A stretch of DNA of 64,000 nucleotides from a virus. Taxonomy: Duplodnaviria > Caudoviricetes. The notes beneath the pieces were generated by a model that was given only the letters and a program-made list of their open reading frames with translations, was not told where the DNA came from and made no database searches. Position 1 is the first letter of the stretch. Each line of letters starts with the position of its first letter. Shown in pieces: positions 1 to 52,074 of this stretch. A program made the position numbers and the translations under genes. The DNA is taken from the IMG/VR virus record IMGVR_UViG_3300032219_002522, positions 51,840-115,839 of that record; one strand, written 5' to 3'.

Positions 1-1035
1 CTTTCTTTATTTGACAACGAAATCTATGAAGCAGCTCCGAAAGGAAACACTGTACAAGGTGGATTATTTGATGTTAACGATAAGAACGTTTATAATGCAG
101 TTAAAAACGTAAAAACTGCTGTTATCCAAGGTGCTCAATACACTTTCTTAACAATAGGTCAAGGTATTAAAGCTTATGCTGATGCACAAGTTAAAGCTGC
201 AAAAGCTACCGGACAAGCTTTATTAAATTTAGCAAAATTTACTGGTAAAGTTGTTATATTTACTGCTGCTGGACTTTATGTAGTAACTGAAGCAGTTGCT
301 ACTGGATTAATTTCTCTAGCAACATCTATATTTGGATATGCAAAAAAAGGAGCTATTGCAATTGGTAGTACTCTTGTTACTGCATTAAAAAATGCTAACG
401 ATTACTTTAAAAAATTAGGCAAAGCAGTATTTAATACTATTAAAAATGATGCTTTAGCAGTTGCTAAAGTTTTTATGACAGGTTTATATAAAGTTGCTAA
501 TTTAGCTTCTCAAGCTGCTCAAGCAGTTGCATCTCTAACCGTTGCAGCATATAAGATAGCTAAAACAGCATTTAAATCTATTACTAACTTTGCAGCAGAG
601 TGTATATACGGAGCAGCTAAAGCAGCTAAGACTGTTGCTATTAAAATAGGAAAAGCGGTTGGTGATTTTTATAATGCTTCTGTAAGTGTATTTAAATCTG
701 CTAAGGATGCTATTGTAAAAACTATAAAAACTGGATTTAACGCAGTAGCAAATACTGTTAAAGCTGGTGTGCAAAAAACAGTTAAGGTTGCTGCTAAAAT
801 AAAAACGGGAGTTGGAAATGCTCTTAAGGCCGCACAGAATAAAATCGTTAATACCGGAAAAGAAATACTTTCAGTTGGTAGCGCTATATTTAGGGGTCTT
901 TGGGATCACGAGATTTACCAAGGAACTGACGAAGATATTTTTGAATCCTATGTTATTGTTGAGGGACAAAGATACTACGTGCCAGTTGATTCATACGATG
1001 ATTACGATCTAGATATTTTCGGATCACAGTATTAA
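1..1035 (+). CDS. Ala/Lys/Val-rich amphipathic helical protein, 5'-truncated by the window edge
   Basis: Frame 1 is open from base 1 (LSLFDNEIYEAAPKG...) and continues into track ORF 475..1035; the sequence is repetitive and helical in character. Confidence 0.75.
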   Translation, partial: LSLFDNEIYEAAPKGNTVQGGLFDVNDKNVYNAVKNVKTAVIQGAQYTFLTIGQGIKAYADAQVKAAKATGQALLNLAKFTGKVVIFTAAGLYVVTEAVATGLISLATSIFGYAKKGAIAIGSTLVTALKNANDYFKKLGKAVFNTIKNDALAVAKVFMTGLYKVANLASQAAQAVASLTVAAYKIAKTAFKSITNFAAECIYGAAKAAKTVAIKIGKAVGDFYNASVSVFKSAKDAIVKTIKTGFNAVANTVKAGVQKTVKVAAKIKTGVGNALKAAQNKIVNTGKEILSVGSAIFRGLWDHEIYQGTDEDIFESYVIVEGQRYYVPVDSYDDYDLDIFGSQY

Positions 1036-1513
1036 TAGAAACAAAACCTAAAAACATACCTATTAAATGACCCCCGTGGGATATTCCATCGGGGTCATTT
1101 AGTGTAACGACCTCTCCTATCAATATAATAGCCAAAATTGGTATAAGGAATTTATTTGATAATAGTAATCTTGTTAAAAGAAAATACACCAATCCAGATA
1201 TACCTATAGAAATTTGAACTCCGAAAAAAGTAAGTATAAAAGTAAAGGTCTGAACGACTATAGTTATTAATACCATCTGCTTTATATCATATTTGTTACC
1301 ACTATGAATAAGTAACAAAAATATTGCTATTATATTAAATAGAAAATGATCTAAAGATTGGTGAATAAATCCACTAATAAATGGTAAGGATATAGCTAAA
1401 TCAGCATTTCCCCCAAGTATAAGCATCATAATTAATCCTAGCGGGTATGCTAATACGCATACTCCTAATACCTTTAATGTTTCTATAGCAGATCTTTTTA
1501 AATTTTCTTTCAT
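953..1513 (-). CDS. Rhomboid-family intramembrane serine protease
   Basis: Multiple TM segments; HQSLDHFLFN (HxxxxHxxxN), GISG (GxSG catalytic Ser) and SHGGHLIG (catalytic His) motifs. Confidence 0.85.
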   Translation of the reverse strand: MKENLKRSAIETLKVLGVCVLAYPLGLIMMLILGGNADLAISLPFISGFIHQSLDHFLFNIIAIFLLLIHSGNKYDIKQMVLITIVVQTFTFILTFFGVQISIGISGLVYFLLTRLLLSNKFLIPILAIILIGEVVTLNDPDGISHGGHLIGMFLGFVSINTVIRKYLDRNHRMNQLARSIFVPQQ

Positions 1514-1599
1514 TTTTTTGTTTTGTAATACAATAGTAGAAAACCCAAAGAAATATAAAAAAAGATTCTAAATCATTTTTTATATTAAATAAAAAGGTC

Positions 1600-1635
1600 T
1601 ATATTTGTGAAACAAAACAAAAGGAACGATATATA
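1600..1635 (+). promoter_or_regulatory. Dual promoter of tRNA cluster 1: Bacteroidota-type TAnnTTTG (1600-1607) and putative late GATATATA (1628-1635)
   Basis: TATATTTGTGAAACAA...GATATATA; the same arrangement recurs at 7282-7317. Confidence 0.65.
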
Positions 1636-1643
1636 ACAGATAT

Positions 1644-1718
1644 ATGAAAAACCTAAACAACATATTACCTTTAATATTAAGACCGTCGATAAGACGATCT
1701 CTAAAGGTCCTGTGTTAG
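1644..1718 (+). CDS. Leader peptide 1 of putative tRNA-cluster attenuator (MKNLNNILPLILRPSIRRSLKVLC, 24 aa)
   Basis: ATG 1644 to TAG 1718; run of ATA/TTA/CCN/AGA/TCN codons; 3' end overlaps the antiterminator arm. Confidence 0.75.
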   Translation: MKNLNNILPLILRPSIRRSLKVLC

Positions 1719-1773
1719 TTTTCAATATATACTAAACTAAAAAACCGGGACCTTTAAAAGCCCCGGTTTTTTT
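1702..1773 (+). terminator. Attenuator 1: intrinsic terminator (1739-1773) with alternative antiterminator (1702-1712/1746-1756 and 1715-1721/1734-1740)
   Basis: AAAAAACCGGG...CCCGGTTTTTTT stem and U-tract; TAAAGGTCCTG is complementary to CGGGACCTTTA. Confidence 0.8.
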
Positions 1774-1775
1774 AT

Positions 1776-1791
1776 GGTCTTTGAAATATTG
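1776..1791 (+). promoter_or_regulatory. boxA-like antitermination element
   Basis: GGTCTTTGAAATATTG, matching GTTCTTTGACATATTG at 7498; resembles rrn boxA (E. coli TGCTCTTTAACA). Confidence 0.55.
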
Positions 1792-1803
1792 AATTATTAA
1801 ATT

Positions 1804-1890
1804 AGAGAGTTGCCAGAGTCAGGCTTAATGGATCAGTCTTGAAAACTGACGTAGTGAAAGCTACCAGGGGTTCGAATCCCTCACTCTCTG
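1804..1890 (+). tRNA. tRNA-Ser(TGA)
   Basis: AGAGAGT/ACTCTCT acceptor, TCAGT-CT TGA AA-ACTGA anticodon arm, long variable arm, GGTTCGAATCC. Confidence 0.93.
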
Positions 1891-1895
1891 CTCAT

Positions 1896-1967
1896 GGGTC
1901 TATAGTTAAAGGGATATAACCCTAGCCTTCTAAGCTTGTATTCCTGGTTCGAGTCCAGGTGGACCTA
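1896..1967 (+). tRNA. tRNA-Arg(TCT)
   Basis: GGGTCTA/TGGACCT acceptor, CT TCT AA loop, CCTGG-TTCGAGT-CCAGG. Confidence 0.9.
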
Positions 1968-2134
1968 CACAAAGCCCTCTGCCTAGCGCTGGGTATGGAT
2001 CGAAGATAGAATAGGCCTCTACACCGTAGACAGGTAGGATACCTCGGTATTCTTTAATGATATGCACACTTATTCTCTAAATCGTGGGTTAGCACAGTTT
2101 GTATGTTCTGGGGATATTTAAAGACATACAATTT

Positions 2135-2207
2135 CGGGATGTAGATCAGTTGGTAGATCGCCTGGTTTGGGGCCAGAAGGCCCTAGGTTCGAGTCCTAGT
2201 ATTCCGA
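2135..2207 (+). tRNA. tRNA-Pro(TGG)
   Basis: CGGGATG/TATTCCG acceptor, CTGG-TT TGG GG-CCAG, CTAGG-TTCGAGT-CCTAG. Confidence 0.9.
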
Positions 2208-2214
2208 CAGCCAC

Positions 2215-2288
2215 AGAGGCGTAGCTCAATTGGTTAGAGCACATGCCTTATACGCATGCGGTCACGAGTTCGACTCTCGTCGTCTCTA
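2215..2288 (+). tRNA. tRNA-Ile(TAT)
   Basis: AGAGGCG/CGTCTCT acceptor, CATGC-CT TAT AC-GCATG, ACGAG-TTCGACT-CTCGT. Confidence 0.9.
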
Positions 2289-2291
2289 CTT

Positions 2292-2365
2292 GGTCCCTTA
2301 GCTCAGTAGGTTAGAGCAACTGACTCATAATCAGTAGGTCCACGGTTCGAGCCCGTGAGGGACCA
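2292..2365 (+). tRNA. tRNA(CAT), most likely Ile2 (lysidine type) rather than Met
   Basis: GGTCCCT/AGGGACC acceptor with C4-G69 and C5-G68 (TilS determinants); overall similar to E. coli ileX (GGCCCCTTAGCTCAG...GACTCATAATC). Confidence 0.8.
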
Positions 2366-2380
2366 CAAAATTAATAATCT

Positions 2381-2461
2381 GCCTGGGTGGTGAAATTGGT
2401 AGACACGTTCGGCTTAAGATCGAATGCGAAATGCGTGAGGGTTCGAGTCCCTCCTCGGGTA
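2381..2461 (+). tRNA. tRNA-Leu(TAA)
   Basis: GCCTGGG/CTCGGGT acceptor, TTCGG-CT TAA GA-TCGAA, variable arm, GAGGG-TTCGAGT-CCCTC. Confidence 0.9.
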
Positions 2462-2466
2462 CATAT

Positions 2467-2569
2467 ATAAGAGTGGCGGAAGCGAGATCATTTATGATCC
2501 GATGGAGAGACGCTAGGGTGTCATGCCAGAGAACGAAAATTCATGTTGGTTCAAGTCCAACCTCTTGTA
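2467..2569 (+). ncRNA. Aberrant tRNA-like RNA (intact acceptor and T arms, expanded D loop, degenerate anticodon arm)
   Basis: ATAAGAG/CTCTTGT acceptor; GTTGG-TTCAAGT-CCAAC; GCGGAA...AGACGC D arm containing a GATCAT-TT-ATGATC insert. Confidence 0.6.
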
Positions 2570-2582
2570 CTTTTTAGATTTT

Positions 2583-3134
2583 TTACTTAACCTCTTTAAT
2601 TCTGAAGTATCCTCGGTGATCGGTTTTACCTGGTTCTACACCATCTTCGAATTTACAATATCCAGTAGAATTAAAGAAGTTCCATTCTTCTCTTCTACCT
2701 TTACTAAGTTTATCCTGTGGCATTAAAGATCTATTATATTCTTGATTTTCTTGGTTAATTCTCTTATACATTCCATTATAAAATGTAGATGTGCTAAGTA
2801 AATTCGTAGCTTCTTCCATTAATCTTCGATTGATATTATAGTCAAATATAGCCTCATGAATAGAAATCTCTGAAATGTCTCTTCTATAGCTAATCCATTG
2901 TGATATAACTCCACCATAATTATATGGTGTATAACCTAAATCCCCTACGTAAAAAAGATTAAAATATGGAGAATTCTCTTTGCTGTGATCGAACAACCTT
3001 ATGTTAGTATTAAAATGTGGTACAGTTCCACTGAATTCTTTCATTCTATTATAGAATTCAGGCAGTATCTCTAATGTTATTGATGTCGGATTATTATTTG
3101 CATCAAATCCCTCAAATAGCTTAATGTGTTTCAT
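2583..3134 (-). CDS. Hypothetical protein with MKHIKLFE N-terminal motif (putative internal virion protein)
   Basis: ORF track; GATATATA on the minus strand at 3140-3147. Confidence 0.75.
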   Translation of the reverse strand: MKHIKLFEGFDANNNPTSITLEILPEFYNRMKEFSGTVPHFNTNIRLFDHSKENSPYFNLFYVGDLGYTPYNYGGVISQWISYRRDISEISIHEAIFDYNINRRLMEEATNLLSTSTFYNGMYKRINQENQEYNRSLMPQDKLSKGRREEWNFFNSTGYCKFEDGVEPGKTDHRGYFRIKEVK

Positions 3135-3174
3135 ATGATTATATATCTAAATATCTAAATAAATGTGATATATA

Positions 3175-4794
3175 ATGTATATGAAAAAGTACATAAAACT
3201 ATTCGAGGAGTTTGTTTTTGAATACCTATCAAAAGCTTCTAAAATAATTAATAATATTAGCGAATTACCTAAAGTTGGAGAACCTGTAGTCAAACAGGAT
3301 TTTAGCGAGGACGGTATAGTAGCTATTGATTGGAAGAACTTAGTTTTTATTAGATCCTCAGATGAGCTTCCCACTCTTCGAGGTAAAGATATGCTACTTC
3401 ACACAGGAAAAGCTCTAAAGAGCGTAGGTTTCAATGACTCTTTCGAGAAGTACCTCAAGAAGAAGTACAATAATGACATCAACGACCCTGAAAATACATG
3501 GATAAAGGAAGAACCTCACTACAAGGACTTTGAAACTTTTCGAAAATGGATGATAGATGCTCATTCCACCAGATGGACAAAACACTTTACGTTGAACCAC
3601 GTAGTTTCTTCTCACTCTGGTGGAAACTGGACAGGTAACAAGTACATCTACTTGATGCCCGGAGAATCTATGATCAAGACTAACGGAAAACCTGCTAGTC
3701 TCTTTGCTATAGACACTTACTATGACAAGAGCTTGGTAGTGTCTGACGGTACAGTAGTTCTTTACTTACCTGAAGCAGATGAAGAAGTTAGGGAGTTTGT
3801 GGCTAAAACAGCTGAGAACAGAAACCAAATTTATTTCTTGAAGATAAAAGGAGATATTGTCGATTACGAGCTGAAAGATGCCAACGATGCGATAGAAGCT
3901 ATGGGATACACTACGTTTAGTGGGGGCTCTCACTACTCAACCGAGTATAATCTTGACAGTGAGATGAGAGATTTACAAGACAGGGAAGACATCAGAAAAA
4001 GTGGACTACACTGGGGTTCTAAATGGTACAATCTTGAGAAGGGACAAACACACTGGGAAGATTTTATGAGTCTAGGGAAGATAAAAAGATCCCAGTATAA
4101 AAACTTGAACATCAAGAAAGAAGAACAGGAGTACCAAGAACATAGAGGATTCAGCAAAGATTACTTGAAAGAGTGCGTGAAATCGTTATCAAAATCTCAT
4201 TCGGAAGATCCTTTCGACAAAGAAGTTGTGCGCAACTACTTACGATACATGACGATGGTTTGCAAGATCATAGCTACTCCTAAATTTTCAATGAAACAGT
4301 TCGATGAGACTGCAGGTTTCAGTTGGAATAATTCGGATGAACACGCGTTAAGTATGGATTCATGGGATCCGAATAAATTAGAATCTGAGTTAGATAGAGA
4401 TTTTGAGGCTCACCCTGAATACACAAGACCTGAACGATACGGTTACGGAACTCCAGCACAAAAAGAAGTTATGGCTAAAAGGAGCAATGAATACATAGGG
4501 GAGTATTACTATTTCAATAAGTACCTACTGTTCGACATAAAGCAAGCGTTTAAAACTTCATGGATAGGAAAGTTCCTCCAGGATAACCGTAAAGAACTAG
4601 AAATTTTACAGGATATTATTATTAAAAAGAAAGAAAGCCCAGAATGGGAAGAAGCTGCCGGTAAGATAGCTGATAGATTAGTAGACAGTCCAGTATTTCC
4701 TGATCTTTTAAACATTGGATCATATCTAATAGCAATGAATAGAGGAGCTAAAAAGTACGGATATAAGGACGTTTATGACATGCTTGAATTATAA
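3175..4794 (+). CDS. Hypothetical protein with MKKYIKLFEEF N-terminal motif
   Basis: 539-aa ORF; GATATATA at 3167-3174. Confidence 0.8.
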   Translation: MYMKKYIKLFEEFVFEYLSKASKIINNISELPKVGEPVVKQDFSEDGIVAIDWKNLVFIRSSDELPTLRGKDMLLHTGKALKSVGFNDSFEKYLKKKYNNDINDPENTWIKEEPHYKDFETFRKWMIDAHSTRWTKHFTLNHVVSSHSGGNWTGNKYIYLMPGESMIKTNGKPASLFAIDTYYDKSLVVSDGTVVLYLPEADEEVREFVAKTAENRNQIYFLKIKGDIVDYELKDANDAIEAMGYTTFSGGSHYSTEYNLDSEMRDLQDREDIRKSGLHWGSKWYNLEKGQTHWEDFMSLGKIKRSQYKNLNIKKEEQEYQEHRGFSKDYLKECVKSLSKSHSEDPFDKEVVRNYLRYMTMVCKIIATPKFSMKQFDETAGFSWNNSDEHALSMDSWDPNKLESELDRDFEAHPEYTRPERYGYGTPAQKEVMAKRSNEYIGEYYYFNKYLLFDIKQAFKTSWIGKFLQDNRKELEILQDIIIKKKESPEWEEAAGKIADRLVDSPVFPDLLNIGSYLIAMNRGAKKYGYKDVYDMLEL

Positions 4795-4804
4795 TTAGAA
4801 TAAT

Positions 4805-5227
4805 ATGATTAAAAAACTATCATATTTCGATATATCCGGAATAATTACAAAGCAATATCCTGAATATACTCTAATAATAGGTAAAAAATCTGAGGATATA
4901 TTTAATTATTTTGCCGTAGATGAGTTACATGGACTATATAGAGATAAATGTCATGATAATCCAAATAACGCTTATATAGCTGGTTTATGTAACGTTTATC
5001 CTAATGATCATAATAAATTCTTTATCTTTCTAAATTCGATTAGATTAGATAACGGATACAAGGACGTCCTTTTAATAATGCACGAGTGTATGCACATGTC
5101 TCTAGAGATTCATGGTACAGATTTGACATATAGAGATGGAAATGACATAGAAGAAATTGCTATAACTTGGGCAGAGAAGAATTCTGAATCAATTTACGAA
5201 TTCATTATGTCCAAAGGAATATTATAA
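4805..5227 (+). CDS. Small putative HExxH zinc metallopeptidase-like protein
   Basis: IMHECMH followed by downstream EE. Confidence 0.55.
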   Translation: MIKKLSYFDISGIITKQYPEYTLIIGKKSEDIFNYFAVDELHGLYRDKCHDNPNNAYIAGLCNVYPNDHNKFFIFLNSIRLDNGYKDVLLIMHECMHMSLEIHGTDLTYRDGNDIEEIAITWAEKNSESIYEFIMSKGIL

Positions 5228-5249
5228 AAAATAGGATATATAATGGGTC

Positions 5250-5621
5250 ATGCACGATCACATTAAAATATCCGGACTTGGTATAGAAATATACAAAAAT
5301 GATATACCAGGGGTAAGATGGTATAAAGCTCAGTCTTTTATTAATGATCTTGGAAATGGATGGAGATTGCCTTCATTAAAAGAACTTGCTTTAATAAAAA
5401 CACTAAGAGATCTTGGTGGCATAGGTAGATTTCCTACCGAATATTCAGATTTTTCTGATTCGTATTATTGGAGTAATGAGGAAGGCGAGGTTACTAGTAT
5501 AAGAACACAAGGGAAAGATGGGAAAAGTAACTATGCTTACTTTTTTGATATGTCGGAGGGAACTTCTTCACATAATAAAAAATCATACGATCTTAGGGTT
5601 AGGTTTGTCAGAGATATATAG
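5250..5621 (+). CDS. DUF1566/Lcl-C-like (C-type-lectin-like fold) protein
   Basis: GWRLPSLKEL, YYWS and C-terminal VRFVR motifs. Confidence 0.7.
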   Translation: MHDHIKISGLGIEIYKNDIPGVRWYKAQSFINDLGNGWRLPSLKELALIKTLRDLGGIGRFPTEYSDFSDSYYWSNEEGEVTSIRTQGKDGKSNYAYFFDMSEGTSSHNKKSYDLRVRFVRDI

Positions 5622-5624
5622 AAT

Positions 5625-6476
5625 ATGCCAACAACAAGACCCTTTGCATATAATCCAACACAATCAACAATTTCAGGAACTACAAATGTAGGTACATTAT
5701 GCGTAGGTGTATCTGCTTTAAACTATGGTGCAAATCCAGGAGGACTAACTTGGTGGATGGGTCCGGACGAGGATAATTCTTATGTAATATCTAAAGATGT
5801 ACCAACTTCAAACTTTCCTACCCCAGTAGGAAATGTAGGCACTGTACAATTTTGGAGATGCTCTAATACAGATGAAGCTTTTAGAAGTACAGTACAAATA
5901 ATAAGCGGTATCACTCAAGCTTCCGCTTTAGCAGCTAGTGATTGGTTAACAACAAATGGATATTGGACTAATCGGAATCCATATCTTGCAGGTTTATATA
6001 AAACAACTTACTCCGGATATTTTGCTGATAATGTTAGTTTCTTTGCAACTGCTACTCCTGCATCAGTAGGGGGAAATCCAGCTACATCAGTACAAACAAC
6101 ATCTATATTTGAACCCGCTCAAAATGATGGCGAGAATTTTAGTTGTCAATGGCTAGGTTATTTTAAACCAACAACTTCTGAAACATATACATTCTACACT
6201 TCAAGTGACGACGCTTCGTATGTGTGGATAGGTTCAAATGCACAGACAGGGTTTACAACTACAAATTCAACAGTTAATAACGGGGGATTACATGGGACAC
6301 AAGAACGTTCAGGTTCTATTGCATTAACTGCTGGTACATATTATCAAATAAGAATACAATTTGGTGAACTAAGTGGAGGTGACGTAATGACTTTTAGTTA
6401 TTCAACCCCTACTATTACAAAAACTACCAATGTAACAGGACTAGTATTTTATAATCCGTCCACTAATGGATTCTAA
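5625..6476 (+). CDS. PA14-domain carbohydrate-binding protein (possible virion adhesin)
   Basis: FSCQWLGYFKP...YTFYTSSDDASYVWI...GTYYQIRIQFGE, a PA14/GLEYA signature. Confidence 0.8.
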   Translation: MPTTRPFAYNPTQSTISGTTNVGTLCVGVSALNYGANPGGLTWWMGPDEDNSYVISKDVPTSNFPTPVGNVGTVQFWRCSNTDEAFRSTVQIISGITQASALAASDWLTTNGYWTNRNPYLAGLYKTTYSGYFADNVSFFATATPASVGGNPATSVQTTSIFEPAQNDGENFSCQWLGYFKPTTSETYTFYTSSDDASYVWIGSNAQTGFTTTNSTVNNGGLHGTQERSGSIALTAGTYYQIRIQFGELSGGDVMTFSYSTPTITKTTNVTGLVFYNPSTNGF

Positions 6477-6511
6477 TTCAATAATTAGATATATACAATA
6501 AAATCAAAGAA

Positions 6512-6790
6512 ATGAAGCATATTAAAAATTATCAGGCTAAAAATTCTAAAATTAACGAGGGATTTTGGGATTCTCTTTTTGGTAGACCCACTGTTGATGA
6601 TGCTGCTCACGATCAAATGAGAGGTCAAGGATGGAGTCACAGAGGTAAAGATGAAGAAAACTACATCATGTTCCAAGGGCAAAAGTTCTATCCCGATCAA
6701 ATCCAATATGATGATGTTTATTCAACTAAACAAATACCAAGAGTTGAAGGGGGTATGTTAATCGTAGCTAATCCAGCTTGGAATTTGTAA
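6512..6790 (+). CDS. Hypothetical protein (MKHIKNY...INEG N-terminus)
   Basis: ORF track; GATATATA at 6488-6495. Confidence 0.7.
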   Translation: MKHIKNYQAKNSKINEGFWDSLFGRPTVDDAAHDQMRGQGWSHRGKDEENYIMFQGQKFYPDQIQYDDVYSTKQIPRVEGGMLIVANPAWNL

Positions 6791-6862
6791 AAAAAATCAG
6801 AAATCTTTTTTTTCTTATTATTTTGATCTCTATATTTGGATCCTAATTAAAAAACTTTTACA

Positions 6863-7240
6863 ATGAAATTAAACAAAATGAGCAGGGTTACTATGAAGGT
6901 AGCTCACGAGAATCCAGATGCTAGCGTGAACTTCACAGCGGTAGGGATAGGAAAAGATCAAAGAGAAGCAGCTATCTTCGCATTAGGATCCTTCTTAAAT
7001 GTTATGAATGGTATTAGTGAGGAAGGAATTTCGGATTACAATGAAGCTTTAGAAATGGTAAATGGTCAATATTCGGAAGCTGAAATAGTATCGTTTATGG
7101 AAAAACAATTAGAAAGCAATTCAGGTTCTTTCTTTAATGCTTACGAATCTACTGATGTTGATTATTCATGGGATGAAGTAGAAGGTGAAGAAGCTGGAGG
7201 ATTAATCCAAGAAATGGAAATAATCGAAGAGGAATATTAA
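6863..7240 (+). CDS. Acidic hypothetical protein, probably early
   Basis: ORF track; TATATTTG host-type promoter at 6831-6838. Confidence 0.7.
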   Translation: MKLNKMSRVTMKVAHENPDASVNFTAVGIGKDQREAAIFALGSFLNVMNGISEEGISDYNEALEMVNGQYSEAEIVSFMEKQLESNSGSFFNAYESTDVDYSWDEVEGEEAGGLIQEMEIIEEEY

Positions 7241-7281
7241 AAAATATCAAAGAAACATTTTTTTATTCAATAAAAAGATTG

Positions 7282-7317
7282 TACATTTGTGAAACAATAT
7301 CAGAAAAGAGATATATA
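7282..7317 (+). promoter_or_regulatory. Dual promoter of tRNA cluster 2: TAnnTTTG (7282-7289) and GATATATA (7310-7317)
   Basis: TACATTTGTGAAACAA...GATATATA, parallel to 1600-1635. Confidence 0.65.
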
Positions 7318-7328
7318 AACAAGAAACA

Positions 7329-7436
7329 ATGAAAAACTGTAGTAAACATAACATCATTCGCATGAACAGTCAGATTAATGGCTGCTATCAAACGGTGGCG
7401 TTTTGGGCTAAGGGAAAAGATCCCGATCGAAGCTAA
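7329..7436 (+). CDS. Leader peptide 2 of putative tRNA-cluster attenuator (MKNCSKHNIIRMNSQINGCYQTVAFWAKGKDPDRS, 35 aa)
   Basis: ATG 7329 to TAA 7436; contains codons for all 7 downstream tRNAs; starts MKN like leader 1. Confidence 0.75.
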   Translation: MKNCSKHNIIRMNSQINGCYQTVAFWAKGKDPDRS

Positions 7437-7497
7437 TACAAGAAATCATATTTAGATATTTTGAAAAGGCTTTGATTAACTTCAAAGCCTTTTTTTT
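7425..7497 (+). terminator. Attenuator 2: intrinsic terminator (7464-7497) with alternative antiterminator (7425-7434/7468-7477)
   Basis: AAAAGGCTTTGA-TTAACT-TCAAAGCCTTTTTTTT; GATCGAAGCT pairs with GGCTTTGATT (3 G-U pairs). Confidence 0.75.
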
Positions 7498-7513
7498 GTT
7501 CTTTGACATATTG
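7498..7513 (+). promoter_or_regulatory. boxA-like antitermination element
   Basis: GTTCTTTGACATATTG between the terminator and the first tRNA. Confidence 0.6.
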
Positions 7514-7519
7514 GAAATT

Positions 7520-7601
7520 GGGAGCGGTAGCAAAGTTGGTCAATGCACCGGACTGAAAATCCGGCCATGTGGGTTCGAAGGTTCGAGTCCTTCTACTTCC
7601 A
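7520..7601 (+). tRNA. tRNA-Phe(GAA), atypical (extended variable region)
   Basis: CCGGA-CT GAA AA-TCCGG; GAAGG-TTCGAGT-CCTTC; 12-nt variable region. Confidence 0.8.
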
Positions 7602-7606
7602 CAAAA

Positions 7607-7679
7607 GGTCCCGTAGTTCAATGGATTAGAATGGAACACTACGGATGTTCTGATCCTGGTTCGAATCCAGGCGGGGTCT
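7607..7679 (+). tRNA. tRNA-Arg(ACG)
   Basis: GAACA-CT ACG GA-TGTTC; CCTGG-TTCGAAT-CCAGG. Confidence 0.9.
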
Positions 7680-7690
7680 CAAACAAATAA

Positions 7691-7764
7691 GGTCGCGTGG
7701 CCGAGTGGTTAGGCGCTAGTCTGCAAAACTAGTAACACTGGTTCAATTCCAGTCACGACCTCCA
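7691..7764 (+). tRNA. tRNA-Cys(GCA)
   Basis: CTAGT-CT GCA AA-ACTAG; U73 discriminator and encoded CCA. Confidence 0.92.
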
Positions 7765-7785
7765 AAAAATAAAATAATAAAGCCT

Positions 7786-7917
7786 ATGGATGAAAAAGTG
7801 GTAGTAAAAGGAAGTTTCCCCTCTAGTAAAGAAAACTTAAAAAGAGAAACATTAAAATTTAAACACGCCGAAAGATTAATAAAAAGAATTAAAAGGCTAA
7901 TTAACAAAGGAAAGTAA
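7786..7917 (+). CDS. Small basic 43-aa ORF inside tRNA cluster 2 (MDEKVVVKGSFPSSKENLKRETLKFKHAERLIKRIKRLINKGK)
   Basis: ATG in an A-rich context; fills the whole spacer; stop overlaps the tRNA-Ser 5' end. Confidence 0.5.
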   Translation: MDEKVVVKGSFPSSKENLKRETLKFKHAERLIKRIKRLINKGK

Positions 7918-7994
7918 TCTCAGATGGTGACGGGGCTCGCCTGCTAAGCGAAGCGTACCTTAATTGGTATTTGGTTCGATTCCAATTCTTTCCG
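7909..7994 (+). tRNA. tRNA-Ser(GCT)
   Basis: GGAAAG/CTTTCC acceptor, TCGC-CT GCT AA-GCGA, long variable arm, G73. Confidence 0.82.
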
Positions 7995-8000
7995 CAATAT

Positions 8001-8074
8001 TGACATATAGCTCAGTTGGTTAGAGCGTTGATCTGATACGTCAAAGGCCGAAGGTTCGAATCCTTCTATGTCAC
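8001..8074 (+). tRNA. tRNA-Ile(GAT)
   Basis: TGACATA/TATGTCA acceptor, TTGAT-CT GAT AC-GTCAA. Confidence 0.9.
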
Positions 8075-8079
8075 CCCAC

Positions 8080-8152
8080 GCCTTTGTAGCTCAGCTGGTA
8101 GAGCGCTTCACTTGTAATGAAGTTGTCGCAGGTTCGATTCCTGTCAAAGGCT
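8080..8152 (+). tRNA. tRNA-Thr(TGT)
   Basis: GCCTTTG/CAAAGGC acceptor, CTTCA-CT TGT AA-TGAAG. Confidence 0.92.
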
Positions 8153-8157
8153 CATAT

Positions 8158-8230
8158 TTTCCCCTCGTCTAATTGGCGGGACATGTGGTTTTGGACCAGA
8201 AGAGTCCAGGTTCGAATCCTTGGAGGAAAA
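8158..8230 (+). tRNA. tRNA-Gln(TTG)
   Basis: TT TTG GA loop and GGTTCGAATCC; several stem mismatches. Confidence 0.75.
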
Positions 8231-8272
8231 CAAAAAGATAAATACAATGTCCAGTATGTAAAATTTAAGATT

Positions 8273-8764
8273 ATGAAAGTTCTAGTATTAAATAACGACT
8301 TTACGCCAGTGAGTGTTACCAATATAGCTCGGGGATTCAAACTTGTATATAAAGGTAAAGCCGAAGTATTAGAACATGACGAATCTAATCCTATTGTTAC
8401 AGATCAACAAGTTTATAAAAGACCATCAGTTATAAGGCTTTTAAAGTATGTTGTTCTTCCATTTAAGAAGCTAAAACCCACTAGGGAGAACATATTTAAG
8501 AGAGACGAATTAAAGTGCTTATATTGTGATGCTACAAAGCAGCTTACAATAGATCACGTAATCCCTAGATCTAGAGGAGGTATTAATACATGGGAGAATC
8601 TAGCAACTTGCTGTTCTAGATGCAACGGTAAGAAAGGAGATAGAACTCCAGAAGAAGCAGGAATGAAGATGCGTCACAAACCATTTAAACCTGGATATGG
8701 ATATTTTATCCGGAATTTTTCTAAAGGAATGGATGTTTGGACATCATATCTTCCAGAATATTAA
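8273..8764 (+). CDS. HNH endonuclease (McrA-like)
   Basis: VLVLN...CLYC...TIDHVIPRSRGG...WENLATCCSRCNGKKG; start moved to ATG 8273 because the track start (8117) lies inside tRNAs. Confidence 0.9.
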   Translation: MKVLVLNNDFTPVSVTNIARGFKLVYKGKAEVLEHDESNPIVTDQQVYKRPSVIRLLKYVVLPFKKLKPTRENIFKRDELKCLYCDATKQLTIDHVIPRSRGGINTWENLATCCSRCNGKKGDRTPEEAGMKMRHKPFKPGYGYFIRNFSKGMDVWTSYLPEY

Positions 8765-8767
8765 TAT

Positions 8768-10414
8768 CTATAGAAGAACTCTTTCAGCATATTCCATAAC
8801 TGCAGGATGTGTGTCTACTAAATGTTTAACAAGTGCAATAGTATTAGGATCCTCAGAATTTTGTGTTTGTTCTAGGAAAGATCCTAACATTTCCACTCCA
8901 TCTTTTGTTAGACCTAATATATTTATAACATCGTTTTTGTCGTATTTATTGTCGCTAAGTTCTTTAAATAGATCAATATCCTCTAAGCTGAAGAATCCTC
9001 CATTCTTCTCAGAGTTAAATGCCTTAACAATTTCATTATATGTTATGGAATTGTCTTTTTTAATTATAGATACTATAATGTTTTTAAAAGCGTCCATCTC
9101 TTCTTTGGAATATTCTCCCTCTTCTATAGATCTTTGAACTCCTAAACTTCCTAGAGCATGTATTAAAGCTATATTATTTTTACCTGTTTTTTGTTCTATC
9201 GATTGAATAATTTTTTTGATTATCAATTCACTTTCAAAATTTTTAGCTATAGATTCCTCTATTTCAGGAGAATAGATTCCGTATTTTTTCATGAAATCTA
9301 CATAATTTTGATTACCGCTTGAAACGCTACTGTTGCTTCTGTTAGCAGAACTAGTAATTCTTCCGCTAGGATCTATAGTAAGAGATGTTAGGAATTTATT
9401 ATCAGTCTTAGGAAGATCTAATAGATTTATAGATATTTGTAGTCTTCCAGTTGTATAGGTCCAGAATGTTGAATCAGTTCTTATACAATATGGTGCATTT
9501 GATACTTTACAAACCGCTCTCATACCTTCCGCTGATCTAGCAGATGTTACCACTATCTTTTTAGCAATATTATAGTATAGTATTTTTATTGATGGAGATA
9601 TAGACTTTAAAAGCTCTATAAATTCACCTATTCCTGATCCCCACCCAGATACTTTATCTTCGCAGTCCCTAACAAAATCTTTAAATGCCACGTAAGTATC
9701 TGCAAATTCAGGATAAGTCCTTGTGTCTTTATATTTACTTCCATAATTAATTAGCTGCTCCTCTGCGGTTTCCTCTATATTAGTTTCAGGATCTACAATA
9801 GGCTTTAATTTTTTTATGTCGGTTACTGCGTGATATAGTCTATCTAAAAGTTCAGCCCTTTCAGGATCAGTATTTTTTAGTTTAAGAGATTCTGCAAATT
9901 CTCTTCTTATTGGTCCTACGAAATTATCTATAAATTCCTTTATAGGCTTTTGTGCTTCTACATTCTCTAGATCATCCCATAGTTTTTCATAAGCTCTTTC
10001 ACCCTGTGGTGTTCTTTTTATATAATTATCAATGTTACCAAAAGGAAGAGGAAACGTAGAAAGCATCGGAGACATTTGCTCATATTTTCTATAAAGGTTC
10101 TCTACTGAAAAAGAATTAGGATCGTTATCTCCATTGGACATTGGTAATTTCTCTACTATACGAAAATACGTAAAAGGATACACCAAACCTGGTTTTTTAA
10201 CTTTATTTAAAAAGTAATCTCTTACTTCTATGTAATCTGGATTGCTTAATATTTTTTTCTCTTCCTCTGGAGTAAATTCTATCTTCTCCATAGGATCTAA
10301 TTTAAGCCTCCTTTTTTTATCGTCTGCTGCTAATTTTAATAAAAGAGCCTTAGCGGGAGCCACATTTTCATTGATTGGATAAAATTGGTCGAATGATTTT
10401 AAATTTCTATTCAT
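8768..10414 (-). CDS. Hypothetical protein, paralogue A (putative virion-internal)
   Basis: 548 aa; shares FTPEEEKKILSNPDY, VKKPGLVYPFTYF and CKVSNA blocks with 10427..12094. Confidence 0.85.
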   Translation of the reverse strand: MNRNLKSFDQFYPINENVAPAKALLLKLAADDKKRRLKLDPMEKIEFTPEEEKKILSNPDYIEVRDYFLNKVKKPGLVYPFTYFRIVEKLPMSNGDNDPNSFSVENLYRKYEQMSPMLSTFPLPFGNIDNYIKRTPQGERAYEKLWDDLENVEAQKPIKEFIDNFVGPIRREFAESLKLKNTDPERAELLDRLYHAVTDIKKLKPIVDPETNIEETAEEQLINYGSKYKDTRTYPEFADTYVAFKDFVRDCEDKVSGWGSGIGEFIELLKSISPSIKILYYNIAKKIVVTSARSAEGMRAVCKVSNAPYCIRTDSTFWTYTTGRLQISINLLDLPKTDNKFLTSLTIDPSGRITSSANRSNSSVSSGNQNYVDFMKKYGIYSPEIEESIAKNFESELIIKKIIQSIEQKTGKNNIALIHALGSLGVQRSIEEGEYSKEEMDAFKNIIVSIIKKDNSITYNEIVKAFNSEKNGGFFSLEDIDLFKELSDNKYDKNDVINILGLTKDGVEMLGSFLEQTQNSEDPNTIALVKHLVDTHPAVMEYAERVLL

Positions 10415-50461: not shown

Positions 50462-52074
50462 TGGCTGGATTTACTGACGATAAAAAATCATTTTTTAGTT
50501 CTATTATAGACAATATAAAGAAAGTAGGTAGTTTTGGAATGGCCTACGAGGATCTTGTTGTAAAAAATTCTCAAGCAGTAGGTATAACGGAAGCCCAGTT
50601 TCTACAAAAGGGAGGGATTAAAGACGAGTCTTTCTTATTTGGTTTAAGAAGAGCAGATACTACAACTAAACAGTATATAGCTTACTTTGATAAGGACTAT
50701 AAAAATAAAAGACACTATCTACAAGGATTTGCACAAAATCCAGAGATTGAATTCATATTAGATACTATATGTGACGAGTCCATAGTTTATGACGAAAAAA
50801 ACTTCTGGGCTTATTTTTCTTTTATGGAACACGATGATGTTGACGATGAGACATACGAGAAAGTACAAAAAAGATATAAAGAGGTATACAACCTTTTTGG
50901 GTTTAATCAAGACATCTCTGCATGGCATTTATTTAGGAAGTTTTTAGTTGATGGTATTCTAGCATTTGAAATAGTATTTGATAAGAAAGGAAAAAACATA
51001 GTAGGATTTAAAGAATTAGATCCTTGGTCATTAATACCTACTGTCGAAGCTCAACCTGATGGATCTTTCATTGACATATGGATACAATATCCAGATAATC
51101 CGTCCTTGACTAGAAAGCTTTACGATTCTCAGATAATTTATTTAAGTTATGCTAAAGGTGGTGGAACATCCTCTAGAGTTAGTTATTGTGAGAGAATGAT
51201 TAGATCCTTTAATCTTCTTAGAATAATGGAACATACCAGAATTATTTGGAACGTAATGAACTCATCTTACAGGATGGCAATGACAGTTCCTATTGGTACA
51301 AGATCTCCACAGAAAGCAAAACAAACATTAGGAGAGCTAATGTCCATATACAAAGAGGATATAAGATTAAATACAGATAGTGGAGAATTAAGTATAGATG
51401 GAAAACCTAAAATACAATTCTTTAAAAATTATCTGATGCCTTCTTCACCTAATGGTACACCAGATATACAACCTCTACCAGGTGGGGGTGACGCAACTGC
51501 TTTCTCTGATACTACAGTACTTAAATATTTTGCAAACAAATTAAGAATGGATTCAAAGATACCTGCTACTAGATTTGGTAGAGAAGAATCGGGATCTGAG
51601 GGAACTATTACTTTTACTGCAGAGGGATTAGATCAGGAAGAAGTTAGATTTGGTAAATTTATTAACAGATTAAGATCTATATACCAAGAGATATTGATGA
51701 AGCCACTTTGGGTTCAGTTCTGTTTAGATTTTCCTCACTTAAAAAAGGATTACATAATAAAATCTGAATTTGGATTAGATTACGTAAAAGAGAATATGTT
51801 CAGAGAGGCTAAAGAAATGGAAGTTTTAACAGCAAGAAAGGATCAGGTTATTAAAATATCTGCTCTTATGGATTCTGCTGGTAAAAAATACTTTAGCATG
51901 GATTTCTTAGTTGACAGATGGCTTGGAGTAAAAGGACAAGACCTTCTCTCCAACAAAAAAGCTAAAGAAAAGGCAGCTGAAGAGAAGAAAAAAGCAGCTG
52001 AAGCTGAAGCAGGAGCTACCGGAGCAGAAGGAGCTACTGGAGCAGAAGGTGGGGGTGACGAATTTACACTATAA
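50461..52074 (+). CDS. Portal protein (T4 gp20-like), copy 1
   Basis: PEIEFILDTICDE, FLVDG, ELDP, LRIMEHTRIIW, KAKQTLGELM, EEVRFGKFINRLRSIY. Confidence 0.88.
   Translation: MAGFTDDKKSFFSSIIDNIKKVGSFGMAYEDLVVKNSQAVGITEAQFLQKGGIKDESFLFGLRRADTTTKQYIAYFDKDYKNKRHYLQGFAQNPEIEFILDTICDESIVYDEKNFWAYFSFMEHDDVDDETYEKVQKRYKEVYNLFGFNQDISAWHLFRKFLVDGILAFEIVFDKKGKNIVGFKELDPWSLIPTVEAQPDGSFIDIWIQYPDNPSLTRKLYDSQIIYLSYAKGGGTSSRVSYCERMIRSFNLLRIMEHTRIIWNVMNSSYRMAMTVPIGTRSPQKAKQTLGELMSIYKEDIRLNTDSGELSIDGKPKIQFFKNYLMPSSPNGTPDIQPLPGGGDATAFSDTTVLKYFANKLRMDSKIPATRFGREESGSEGTITFTAEGLDQEEVRFGKFINRLRSIYQEILMKPLWVQFCLDFPHLKKDYIIKSEFGLDYVKENMFREAKEMEVLTARKDQVIKISALMDSAGKKYFSMDFLVDRWLGVKGQDLLSNKKAKEKAAEEKKKAAEAEAGATGAEGATGAEGGGDEFTL

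Follow-up and report, generated by a model that had tools for sequence, protein, structure and literature searches.

The two tRNA clusters of an uncultured Bacteroidota phage, carried in the last 64 kb (positions 51,840 to 115,839; hereafter the window, numbered from its first base) of the 115,839-base IMG/VR virus record IMGVR_UViG_3300032219_002522, are each preceded by a short leader open reading frame (ORF) and an intrinsic terminator. We consider it likely that these units are ribosome-mediated (leader-peptide) attenuators, in which the speed of decoding over the cluster's own codons would gate transcription of the tRNA genes. An earlier, sequence-only reading had also arrived at attenuation, and it is supported here by the matching of leader codons to the tRNAs, by antiterminator strands that fit their own terminators, by the recurrence of such units in other phages, and by the proximity of terminator to tRNA. 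The record has a G+C content of 33% and a completeness of 42% by CheckV estimate, and all 13 of its tRNA genes lie within the two clusters, at 1804-2462 and 7520-8231.

The order of parts is common to both units: a Bacteroidota-type promoter, a leader ORF starting with MKN, an antiterminator strand under its last codons, a terminator, a boxA-like motif, and the tRNAs. This shared architecture had been claimed before; all of the parts were located in that order, and there are only two such sites in the record. Both leaders open with ATGAAAAAC and begin about 30 nt past the -7 boxes. The distance from terminator to first tRNA is 22-30 nt, and that from the boxA-like motif to the first tRNA is 10 nt in unit 1 and 4 nt in unit 2. 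The features of the two units are as follows.

1600-1615, plus strand: promoter of unit 1, -7 box TATATTTG then GTGAAACAA, an exact 16-mer common with unit 2
1628-1636, plus strand: GATATATAA motif in the 5' untranslated region (UTR) of unit 1, 7 nt ahead of the leader ATG
1644-1718, plus strand: leader ORF 1 (MKNLNNILPLILRPSIRRSLKVLC, then stop; ATG at 1644), 24 codons and a stop codon
1655-1673, plus strand: segment 1 of unit 1, the 5' strand of the 1:2 anti-antiterminator hairpin
1662-1694, plus strand: regulatory run of leader 1, ATA TTA CCT TTA ATA TTA AGA CCG TCG ATA AGA, 11 consecutive cluster-1 codons
1702-1712, plus strand: segment 2, the antiterminator strand TAAAGGTCCTG of unit 1 under the last leader codons, pairing with 1746-1756
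1741-1773, plus strand: intrinsic terminator 1, stem 1741-1751 / 1760-1770 and T run; the 5' arm 1746-1756 is segment 3
1778-1793, plus strand: boxA-like motif of unit 1, TCTTTGAAATATTGAA
1804-2462, plus strand: tRNA cluster 1, with Ser(tga) starting at 1804, Arg(tct), Pro(tgg), Ile(tat), a tRNA with anticodon CAT (Ile2 or Met), and Leu(taa)
7282-7297, plus strand: promoter of unit 2, TACATTTG then GTGAAACAA
7310-7318, plus strand: GATATATAA motif in the 5' UTR of unit 2
7329-7436, plus strand: leader ORF 2 (MKNCSKHNIIRMNSQINGCYQTVAFWAKGKDPDRS, then stop), 35 codons including the start, and a stop codon
7427-7434, plus strand: segment 2, the antiterminator strand TCGAAGCT of unit 2, overlapping the stop codon
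7464-7497, plus strand: intrinsic terminator 2, 12-bp stem and T run; the 5' arm 7468-7475 pairs with 7427-7434
7500-7515, plus strand: boxA-like motif of unit 2, TCTTTGACATATTGGA
7520-7602, plus strand: hybrid tRNA, the 5' two-thirds of Phe(gaa) joined at the T loop to the 3' end of Tyr(gta)
7607-8231, plus strand: the remainder of cluster 2, Arg(acg), Cys(gca), Ser(gct) at 7909-7995, Ile(gat), Thr(tgt) and Gln(ttg)

The clusters are as listed in the sequence-only reading, with the qualifications that its tRNA-Phe is the Phe/Tyr hybrid, that Ser(gct) is called by ARAGORN only at relaxed settings and scores below threshold in Rfam, and that its Ile2(CAT) may be either Ile2 or Met.

Codon content was assessed against 140 long ORFs of the phage, in which codons read by the cluster-1 tRNAs make up 16-21% and those read by the cluster-2 tRNAs 17-20%. 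In leader 1 the cluster-1 tRNAs read 12 of 23 codons, and codons 7-17 form the unbroken run of 11; runs of at least 11 cluster-1 codons occur only three times in the six frames of the 116 kb, the other two being Ser/Pro low complexity. This leader contains ATA and TTA three times each, AGA twice, and CCT, CCG, TCG and TCT once each, and is without ATY, AGY, TTY, CAR and ACN. Leader 2 has 14 cluster-2 codons out of 34 versus the 17% expected (binomial p = 7e-4) and a single cluster-1 codon where about seven were expected, with ATA, TTA, AGA and TCN all absent. It picks the rare CGC and CGA (1% and 3% of the phage's Arg codons), together with AGY and ATY three times each (25% of Ser and 42% of Ile codons, respectively). 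The codon split described earlier is correct in every codon that it listed, and the absences were confirmed for both leaders; it was nevertheless selective, since it omitted CGA and TGT (cluster-2-type codons), two CTA and one CTG from leader 1, and passed over the 20 codons of leader 2 unmatched by cluster 2.

Relatives of both units were sought by pattern scans of IMG/VR, which gave nine further loci with a leader 1 homologue and five with a leader 2 homologue, four contigs carrying both. The reading frame of leader 1 is kept in six of these (L505, L509, L511, L507, L508 and L021), leader ORF 2 is likewise retained in its homologues, and cluster 1 in the relatives has an identical tRNA set and order. 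Where leader 1 homologues vary, TTA is replaced by TCA, ATA or TCC, all within the cluster-1 tRNA set; as peptide changes these substitutions (Leu to Ser or Ile) are non-conservative. One locus (L504:3479-3696, minus strand) has a leader 1 homologue with ATA in place of the ATG start, an array reduced to Arg(tct), Ile(tat) and Glu, and an insertion behind the boxA-like motif, and may be a decaying unit.

In the relatives, leader 2 is followed by an array of 16 tRNAs: Phe, Lys, Trp, Arg(acg), Cys, Ser(gct), Ile(gat), Val, Asn, Tyr, Gly, Ala, Met, His, Thr and Gln. Under strict wobble rules this set reads 29 of the 34 codons of the window's leader 2, with all 16 tRNAs represented, and under relaxed rules residues 2-30 all fall within it. 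None of 29,650 windows of 34 codons from the phage's own genes reaches 29 matches, the maximum being 27. Judged from its codons, leader 2 is really a list of the 16 tRNAs carried by relatives, of which the window phage has lost nine. The trace of one loss is visible in the array itself. The window's tRNA-Phe is identical to that of relative L561 up to the T loop, while the last 32 nt of the hybrid region (7520-7606) are identical (32/32) to the 3' end of the L561 tRNA-Tyr plus spacer. By this alignment the hybrid is the product of a deletion between two GGTTCGA loops, with loss of Lys, Trp and the greater part of Tyr. Its predicted fold is no better than that of shuffled sequence, and it is probably impaired. 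The block from Val to His, between Ile and Thr, has also been lost.

Relatives have a third unit as well, which in L505 (minus strand, oriented 2330-2560) consists of the leader MQQFLNIATEVQLDRLEDIGKCQRN with its stop codon, a terminator and a boxA-like motif (GCTCTTTGAAATTA), followed by Glu, Asp, Met, Leu(tag) and Met tRNAs. This unit is absent from the window, where a 125-aa ORF (6863-7240) stands at the corresponding place after a conserved ORF (6512-6790). The window can be read as an evolutionary snapshot, with one unit intact and another whose leader lists 16 tRNAs in front of an array that is down to seven, the deletion scar still being visible.

To see how widely such units occur, IMG/VR was searched for the post-terminator motif, both behind a T run and on its own. 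In many phage contigs the motif was found 7-29 nt ahead of the first tRNA of an array, with a terminator and a small ORF upstream. Leaders were assigned automatically as the longest ORF with an ATG start whose end fell no more than 130 nt upstream of the T run. Of the 27 distinct leaders obtained, L287 was dropped because it lay inside a longer gene, and 26 units remain, including the two of the window. Among these 26, a unit's own tRNAs read a fraction of 0.426 of its leader codons, versus 0.300 for re-paired leaders and clusters (z = 7.3; 0/20,000 permutations), a test which is conservative because homologous units share codons. The match is 43% in frame versus 25% and 22% in the other two frames, which is indirect evidence that the leaders may be translated. 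For 95% of cluster anticodons a cognate codon is present in the unit's own leader, versus 69% in other leaders. In L161, a striking example, TTYTKQYQPKGGKPQGQ is part of the leader and the tRNAs that follow are Pro, Tyr, Gln, Lys, Thr and Gly only. Two checks proposed in the sequence-only reading have in this way come out in its favor: leader ORFs with terminators do recur upstream of tRNA arrays in many phage contigs, and codon-anticodon matching holds under permutation and in the frame controls. Homologues of either leader were absent from 50,697 deposited phage genomes; 64 Flavobacterium phage matches in that search represent a single tRNA-Met, and the search yielded no cultured model phage.

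A further feature of the leaders is an ACATA(T) motif at nt 17-23 of the ORF in 19 of the 26 units (1660-1666 and 7346-7352 in the window), which is never found later in the ORFs and whose letters match the 3' half of the boxA-like motif. It is found in all three codon phases and is therefore a signal at the RNA or DNA level, at a fixed distance from the ATG, and not a peptide motif.

The last codons of the leaders are complementary to the terminators that follow them. In unit 1 the best pairing of leader and terminator 5' arm, AGGTCCTGTGTTA, spans -11 to +2 of the stop codon and has an energy of -13.9 versus -6.8 kcal/mol for shuffled sequence (p = 0.005), and in unit 2 the best pairing, CGATCGAAGCTA, spans -10 to +2 with -12.7 versus -7.9 kcal/mol (p = 0.015). 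Such pairing reaches p <= 0.05 in 18 of the 26 units, and the last 15 leader codons pair better with their own terminator arm than with those of other units (-12.7 versus -8.5 kcal/mol; z = -8; 0/20,000). In its predicted folds unit 1 is a textbook three-state attenuator, the energies being -18.7 kcal/mol for the 1:2 hairpin, -19.1 for 2:3 and -14.0 for the 3:4 terminator. Without a ribosome, segment 1 is predicted to pair with segment 2 and the terminator to form; when segment 1 is masked, the 2:3 pairing of 1702-1712 with 1746-1756 is predicted to displace the terminator even at equilibrium. The antiterminator helix is 93% paired in nine sequences of unit 1 and 100% paired in six of unit 2. 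Covariation, which had been suggested as a check, is sparse among close homologues: terminator 2 has one compensatory change between U-A and C-G, in which the antiterminator G pairs with either base.

Both units carry the boxA-like motif TCTTTGA(A/C)ATATTG(A/G)A, at 1778 and 7500. When one genome per prokaryote species was scanned, the motif was present in many Bacteroidota genomes. In Pedobacter, Mucilaginibacter, Sphingobacterium, Aquirufa and Flavihumibacter, GTTCTTTGACATATTGG lies directly after tRNA-Ala and before the 23S rRNA, and the phage motif is identical to this element; a Chitinophaga contig (L450) has the motif and is too short to display its flanks. A complete Sphingobacterium genome has seven exact copies, and the three loci checked with Rfam all place it between the spacer tRNAs and the large subunit (LSU) rRNA. 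A regular-expression search found no 16S start downstream of the motif, which is situated in the 16S-23S spacer and not in the leader. By position, the motif is in the place of the spacer boxA of bacterial rRNA operons, and the earlier boxA-like label has held up. The first eight bases resemble the known boxA core. A search for boxA with two mismatches in five phage records returned mostly noise, as judged by a reversed-pattern control. A complex of NusB/NusE with boxA has been described (PMC3177189). From its position and its likeness to the boxA core, the phage motif probably loads a Nus antitermination complex, making the polymerase termination-resistant across the structured tRNA array.

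The layout of the units, the statistics on codons and pairing, and the presence of such units in other phages are what we observed; that the leaders are translated, that ribosomes stall on them, that read-through follows and that Nus factors bind behind the terminator is what we infer. Host RNA polymerase would start at the Bacteroidota-type promoter and transcribe a short leader ORF in codons of the downstream tRNAs. A fast ribosome would reach the stop codon and cover the antiterminator strand, which occupies the final 10-11 nt of the ORF; the terminator would then form, and no tRNAs would be made. If the ribosome were slow on the checklist codons, the free antiterminator strand would pair with the 5' arm of the terminator and the polymerase would read on. 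With no ribosome on the leader, an upstream strand would sequester the antiterminator and termination would be the default, a prediction which is clear in the folds of unit 1 and weak in those of unit 2. Past the terminator, a boxA of the host rRNA type in the transcript would probably load the Nus complex for the array. The net effect would be negative feedback, a low decoding capacity for the listed codons leading to more of the matching tRNAs. With moderate confidence we extend this to closed-loop control of tRNA supply, in which a multivalent checklist leader times ribosome transit and gates the array, boxA keeps the polymerase termination-resistant, and replacement tRNAs come on whenever the host pool fails, including after cleavage by anticodon nucleases, which would make the units an inducible counter-defence. 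The link to anticodon nucleases or tRNA depletion is one that we only infer. The sequence-only reading went further in proposing that the phage makes exactly the missing tRNAs; this is too strong, because gating would apply to all tRNAs of a cluster together and nine of the tRNAs listed by leader 2 have been lost here.

Several observations weigh against attenuation by the leaders. The window's cluster 2 lacks a tRNA for 20 of the 34 leader 2 codons, and its first tRNA is the deletion hybrid; the feedback loop is for these reasons incomplete in this phage, and the match of leader to tRNAs in unit 2 is only partial because the array has decayed. The antiterminator of unit 2 is weaker than its terminator (-13.6 versus -17.0 kcal/mol) and would therefore have to act kinetically, and the 1:2 pairing of this unit is weak and rich in G-U pairs. 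Each codon occurs just one to three times in a leader, which bears on the strength of stalling. Most pairs of the helices never vary among close homologues, and counts of covariation are for this reason nearly uninformative. The remaining two points concern promoters: GATATATAA could be a second, phage-type promoter, the transcript then beginning at the leader ATG, and at some analogous loci of other phages a TAnnTTTG box stands between boxA and the first tRNA, where it could be a bypass promoter.

The first of the rival explanations takes up the energies of unit 2. If the terminators were constitutive and partial, a fixed low read-through would supply the tRNAs, perhaps relieved by boxA/Nus or a phage factor during infection, and the ORF would be incidental. 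The terminators and boxA are real, and in unit 2 the terminator is indeed more stable than the antiterminator; boxA, however, lies after the terminator and so cannot relieve or override it. A partial terminator would also leave unexplained the frame-specific matching of codons to tRNAs, the complementarity of the leader tails to their own terminators, and the substitutions that preserve the tRNA set, and we give this explanation little credence.

A second explanation depends on where transcription of the tRNAs begins. The 16-mer composed of the -7 box (TAnnTTTG) and GTGAAACAA has exact copies at 1600 and 7282 only, that of unit 1 is invariant across nine homologous loci, and the pattern of promoter plus GATATATAA occurs at just these two sites of the 116-kb record. 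GATATATAA itself has seven copies in the window versus 2.5 expected, the further ones being at 3167-3175, 5235-5243, 3139-3147 (minus strand), 26158 and 50434; three of these are just upstream of other ORF starts, and the motif may be a phage promoter or a translation-start motif. A sigma-70 promoter scan, with 27 matches versus 34 expected, was uninformative for Bacteroidota. A promoter between terminator and tRNA, named in the sequence-only reading as a finding that would speak against it, was rejected for both units of the window because a gap of 22-30 nt cannot hold a host-type promoter and no -7 box was found there.

Among the other phages, 11 units (L292, L308, L323, L337, L349, L355, L356, L358, L360, L364 and L375) carry GTTGTAnnTTTG, which resembles a -7 box, behind the boxA-like motif and at a distance of 10-15 nt from the first tRNA; this tRNA is Glu in most of them, Asn in L337 and Ile in L364. 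The GTTGTAnnTTTG box may act as an internal promoter or extend the antitermination element. Matches to a 14-base promoter pattern in IMG/VR were mostly to another type of unit preceding tRNA-Met: in L010, L015, L018, L026, L031, L035, L044, L046, L049, L086 and L087 a TTTGTGAAACAA promoter is followed by a long hairpin, a GTTCTTTAA-type box and an initiator-like tRNA-Met(CAT), with nothing but mini-ORFs between promoter and tRNA. Expression of tRNA-Met may be controlled there by a unit of another kind.

On this second explanation the units would be independent small-gene cassettes, in which promoter, ORF and terminator serve a short peptide and the tRNAs are transcribed from another promoter, phage-specific or overlapping the terminator. 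The leaders do share an MK(N/T) N-terminus and the conserved ACATA motif, and there is the TAnnTTTG box after boxA in some other phages. In the window there is no room or -7 box for such a promoter, the ACATA motif ignores the reading frame, the peptide sequences change non-conservatively, and the codon match to the downstream tRNAs would be left unexplained. A functional leader peptide is unlikely, and we regard the cassettes as even less probable than a constitutive partial terminator.

Least probable of all is a translation-independent RNA switch, whose hairpins would answer a bound factor (a protein, or uncharged tRNA as in T-boxes) and not the ribosome: alternative structures and a frame-independent conserved RNA motif within the leader exist, but the codon matching is specific to the ORF frame, all units have an ATG with an A-rich start, and no T-box or other riboswitch model matched. 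The T-box covariance model of Rfam gave no match at E <= 1 in positions 1-10000 of the window, and T-box and riboswitch readings were rejected on the lack of any Rfam match at that threshold. The Rfam Thr_leader model (RF00506) aligns to 1651-1776 with 28 bits versus a gathering threshold of 55, which does not amount to membership.

The tRNA arrays contain other elements. Between tRNA-Arg and tRNA-Pro lies a 165-nt element (1969-2134) which is 94-96% conserved in relatives and 77% in L379; its predicted multi-helix fold has nine pairs with compensatory changes in four sequences, no Rfam model matches it, and it may be an unknown structured RNA carried in the array. After tRNA-Leu there is a tRNA-like element (2467-2570), which combines an acceptor-like stem and a T arm (GGTTCAAGTCC) with additional arms and has a T run behind it. 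This element is conserved with compensatory pairs in L505, where two copies stand in tandem, and in L507, and only under relaxed settings does ARAGORN report it, as a tRNA with an intron. In cluster 2 a basic ORF of 43 codons (7786-7917) is located between tRNA-Cys and tRNA-Ser, overlapping the start of the latter, and its DNA is 84% conserved in L561. An HNH endonuclease gene (8273-8764; Pfam HNH_5, 4.6e-17) directly follows cluster 2, and in L021 (minus strand) the boxA-like motif and the first tRNA (tRNA-Ser) are separated by an inserted ORF of about 240 aa. Mobile endonuclease genes seem to use tRNA arrays as landing sites.

Genes for tRNAs are usually viewed as controlled at initiation, by growth rate and the stringent response, and phage tRNAs as passively expressed cargo. 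The full-text literature searched contained leader-peptide attenuation for amino-acid, synthetase, ribosomal-protein and resistance genes, and none was found for tRNA genes or phage tRNA arrays; nor did the literature searched yield a description of regulated, self-sensing expression of phage tRNA clusters. Attenuation is a known mechanism, and what is new is its proposed use on tRNA genes, through a checklist that would sense its own product and is coupled to boxA. If the attenuation proposed here is true, this would be the first case of the translation machinery gauging its own decoding capacity codon by codon and adjusting the matching tRNA supply, and it would offer a testable answer to how phages dose their tRNAs and when these are needed. 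Possible triggers are a mismatch in codon usage, host shut-off, and tRNA-cleaving defences. The modular design (leader, switch, boxA and array), which recurs in many uncultured Bacteroidota phages, could provide a natural sensor of tRNA availability for synthetic use.

The closest known systems are the attenuators of the amino-acid operons. Like the trpL, hisL, leuL, thrL and ilvGMEDA leaders, the phage units have a promoter-proximal short ORF rich in codons related to the product, mutually exclusive 2:3 and 3:4 hairpins with a 1:2 hairpin that is clear in unit 1 and weak in unit 2, an intrinsic terminator, and predicted default termination when no ribosome is on the leader; they would also respond to several amino acids together, like the ilv and thr leaders. 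Unlike them, the phage units would regulate tRNA genes, so that the sensor would read its own product, their leader is a checklist of 5-16 amino acids with one to three codons each, and they are phage-encoded, in a Bacteroidota context, with a boxA following. The pheST attenuator of E. coli, with its pheM leader, is a case of leader-peptide attenuation of a translation-apparatus gene that senses decoding of the cognate codon; it differs in controlling a synthetase, in sensing one amino acid, and in being chromosomal. In T-box riboswitches, too, the status of tRNA selects between terminator and antiterminator, but these bind uncharged tRNA directly and have no ORF. Antitermination in rRNA operons through boxA and NusB/NusE (PMC3177189; PMC4807359) uses the same element in the Bacteroidota rRNA spacer, whereas here the motif precedes phage tRNA arrays and sits behind a terminator that is probably regulated. 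Finally, there are phage tRNA clusters that likewise supplement the host pool and offset the loss of host tRNAs, as T5 tRNAs reportedly do against PARIS (bioRxiv 10.1101/2024.01.02.573894).

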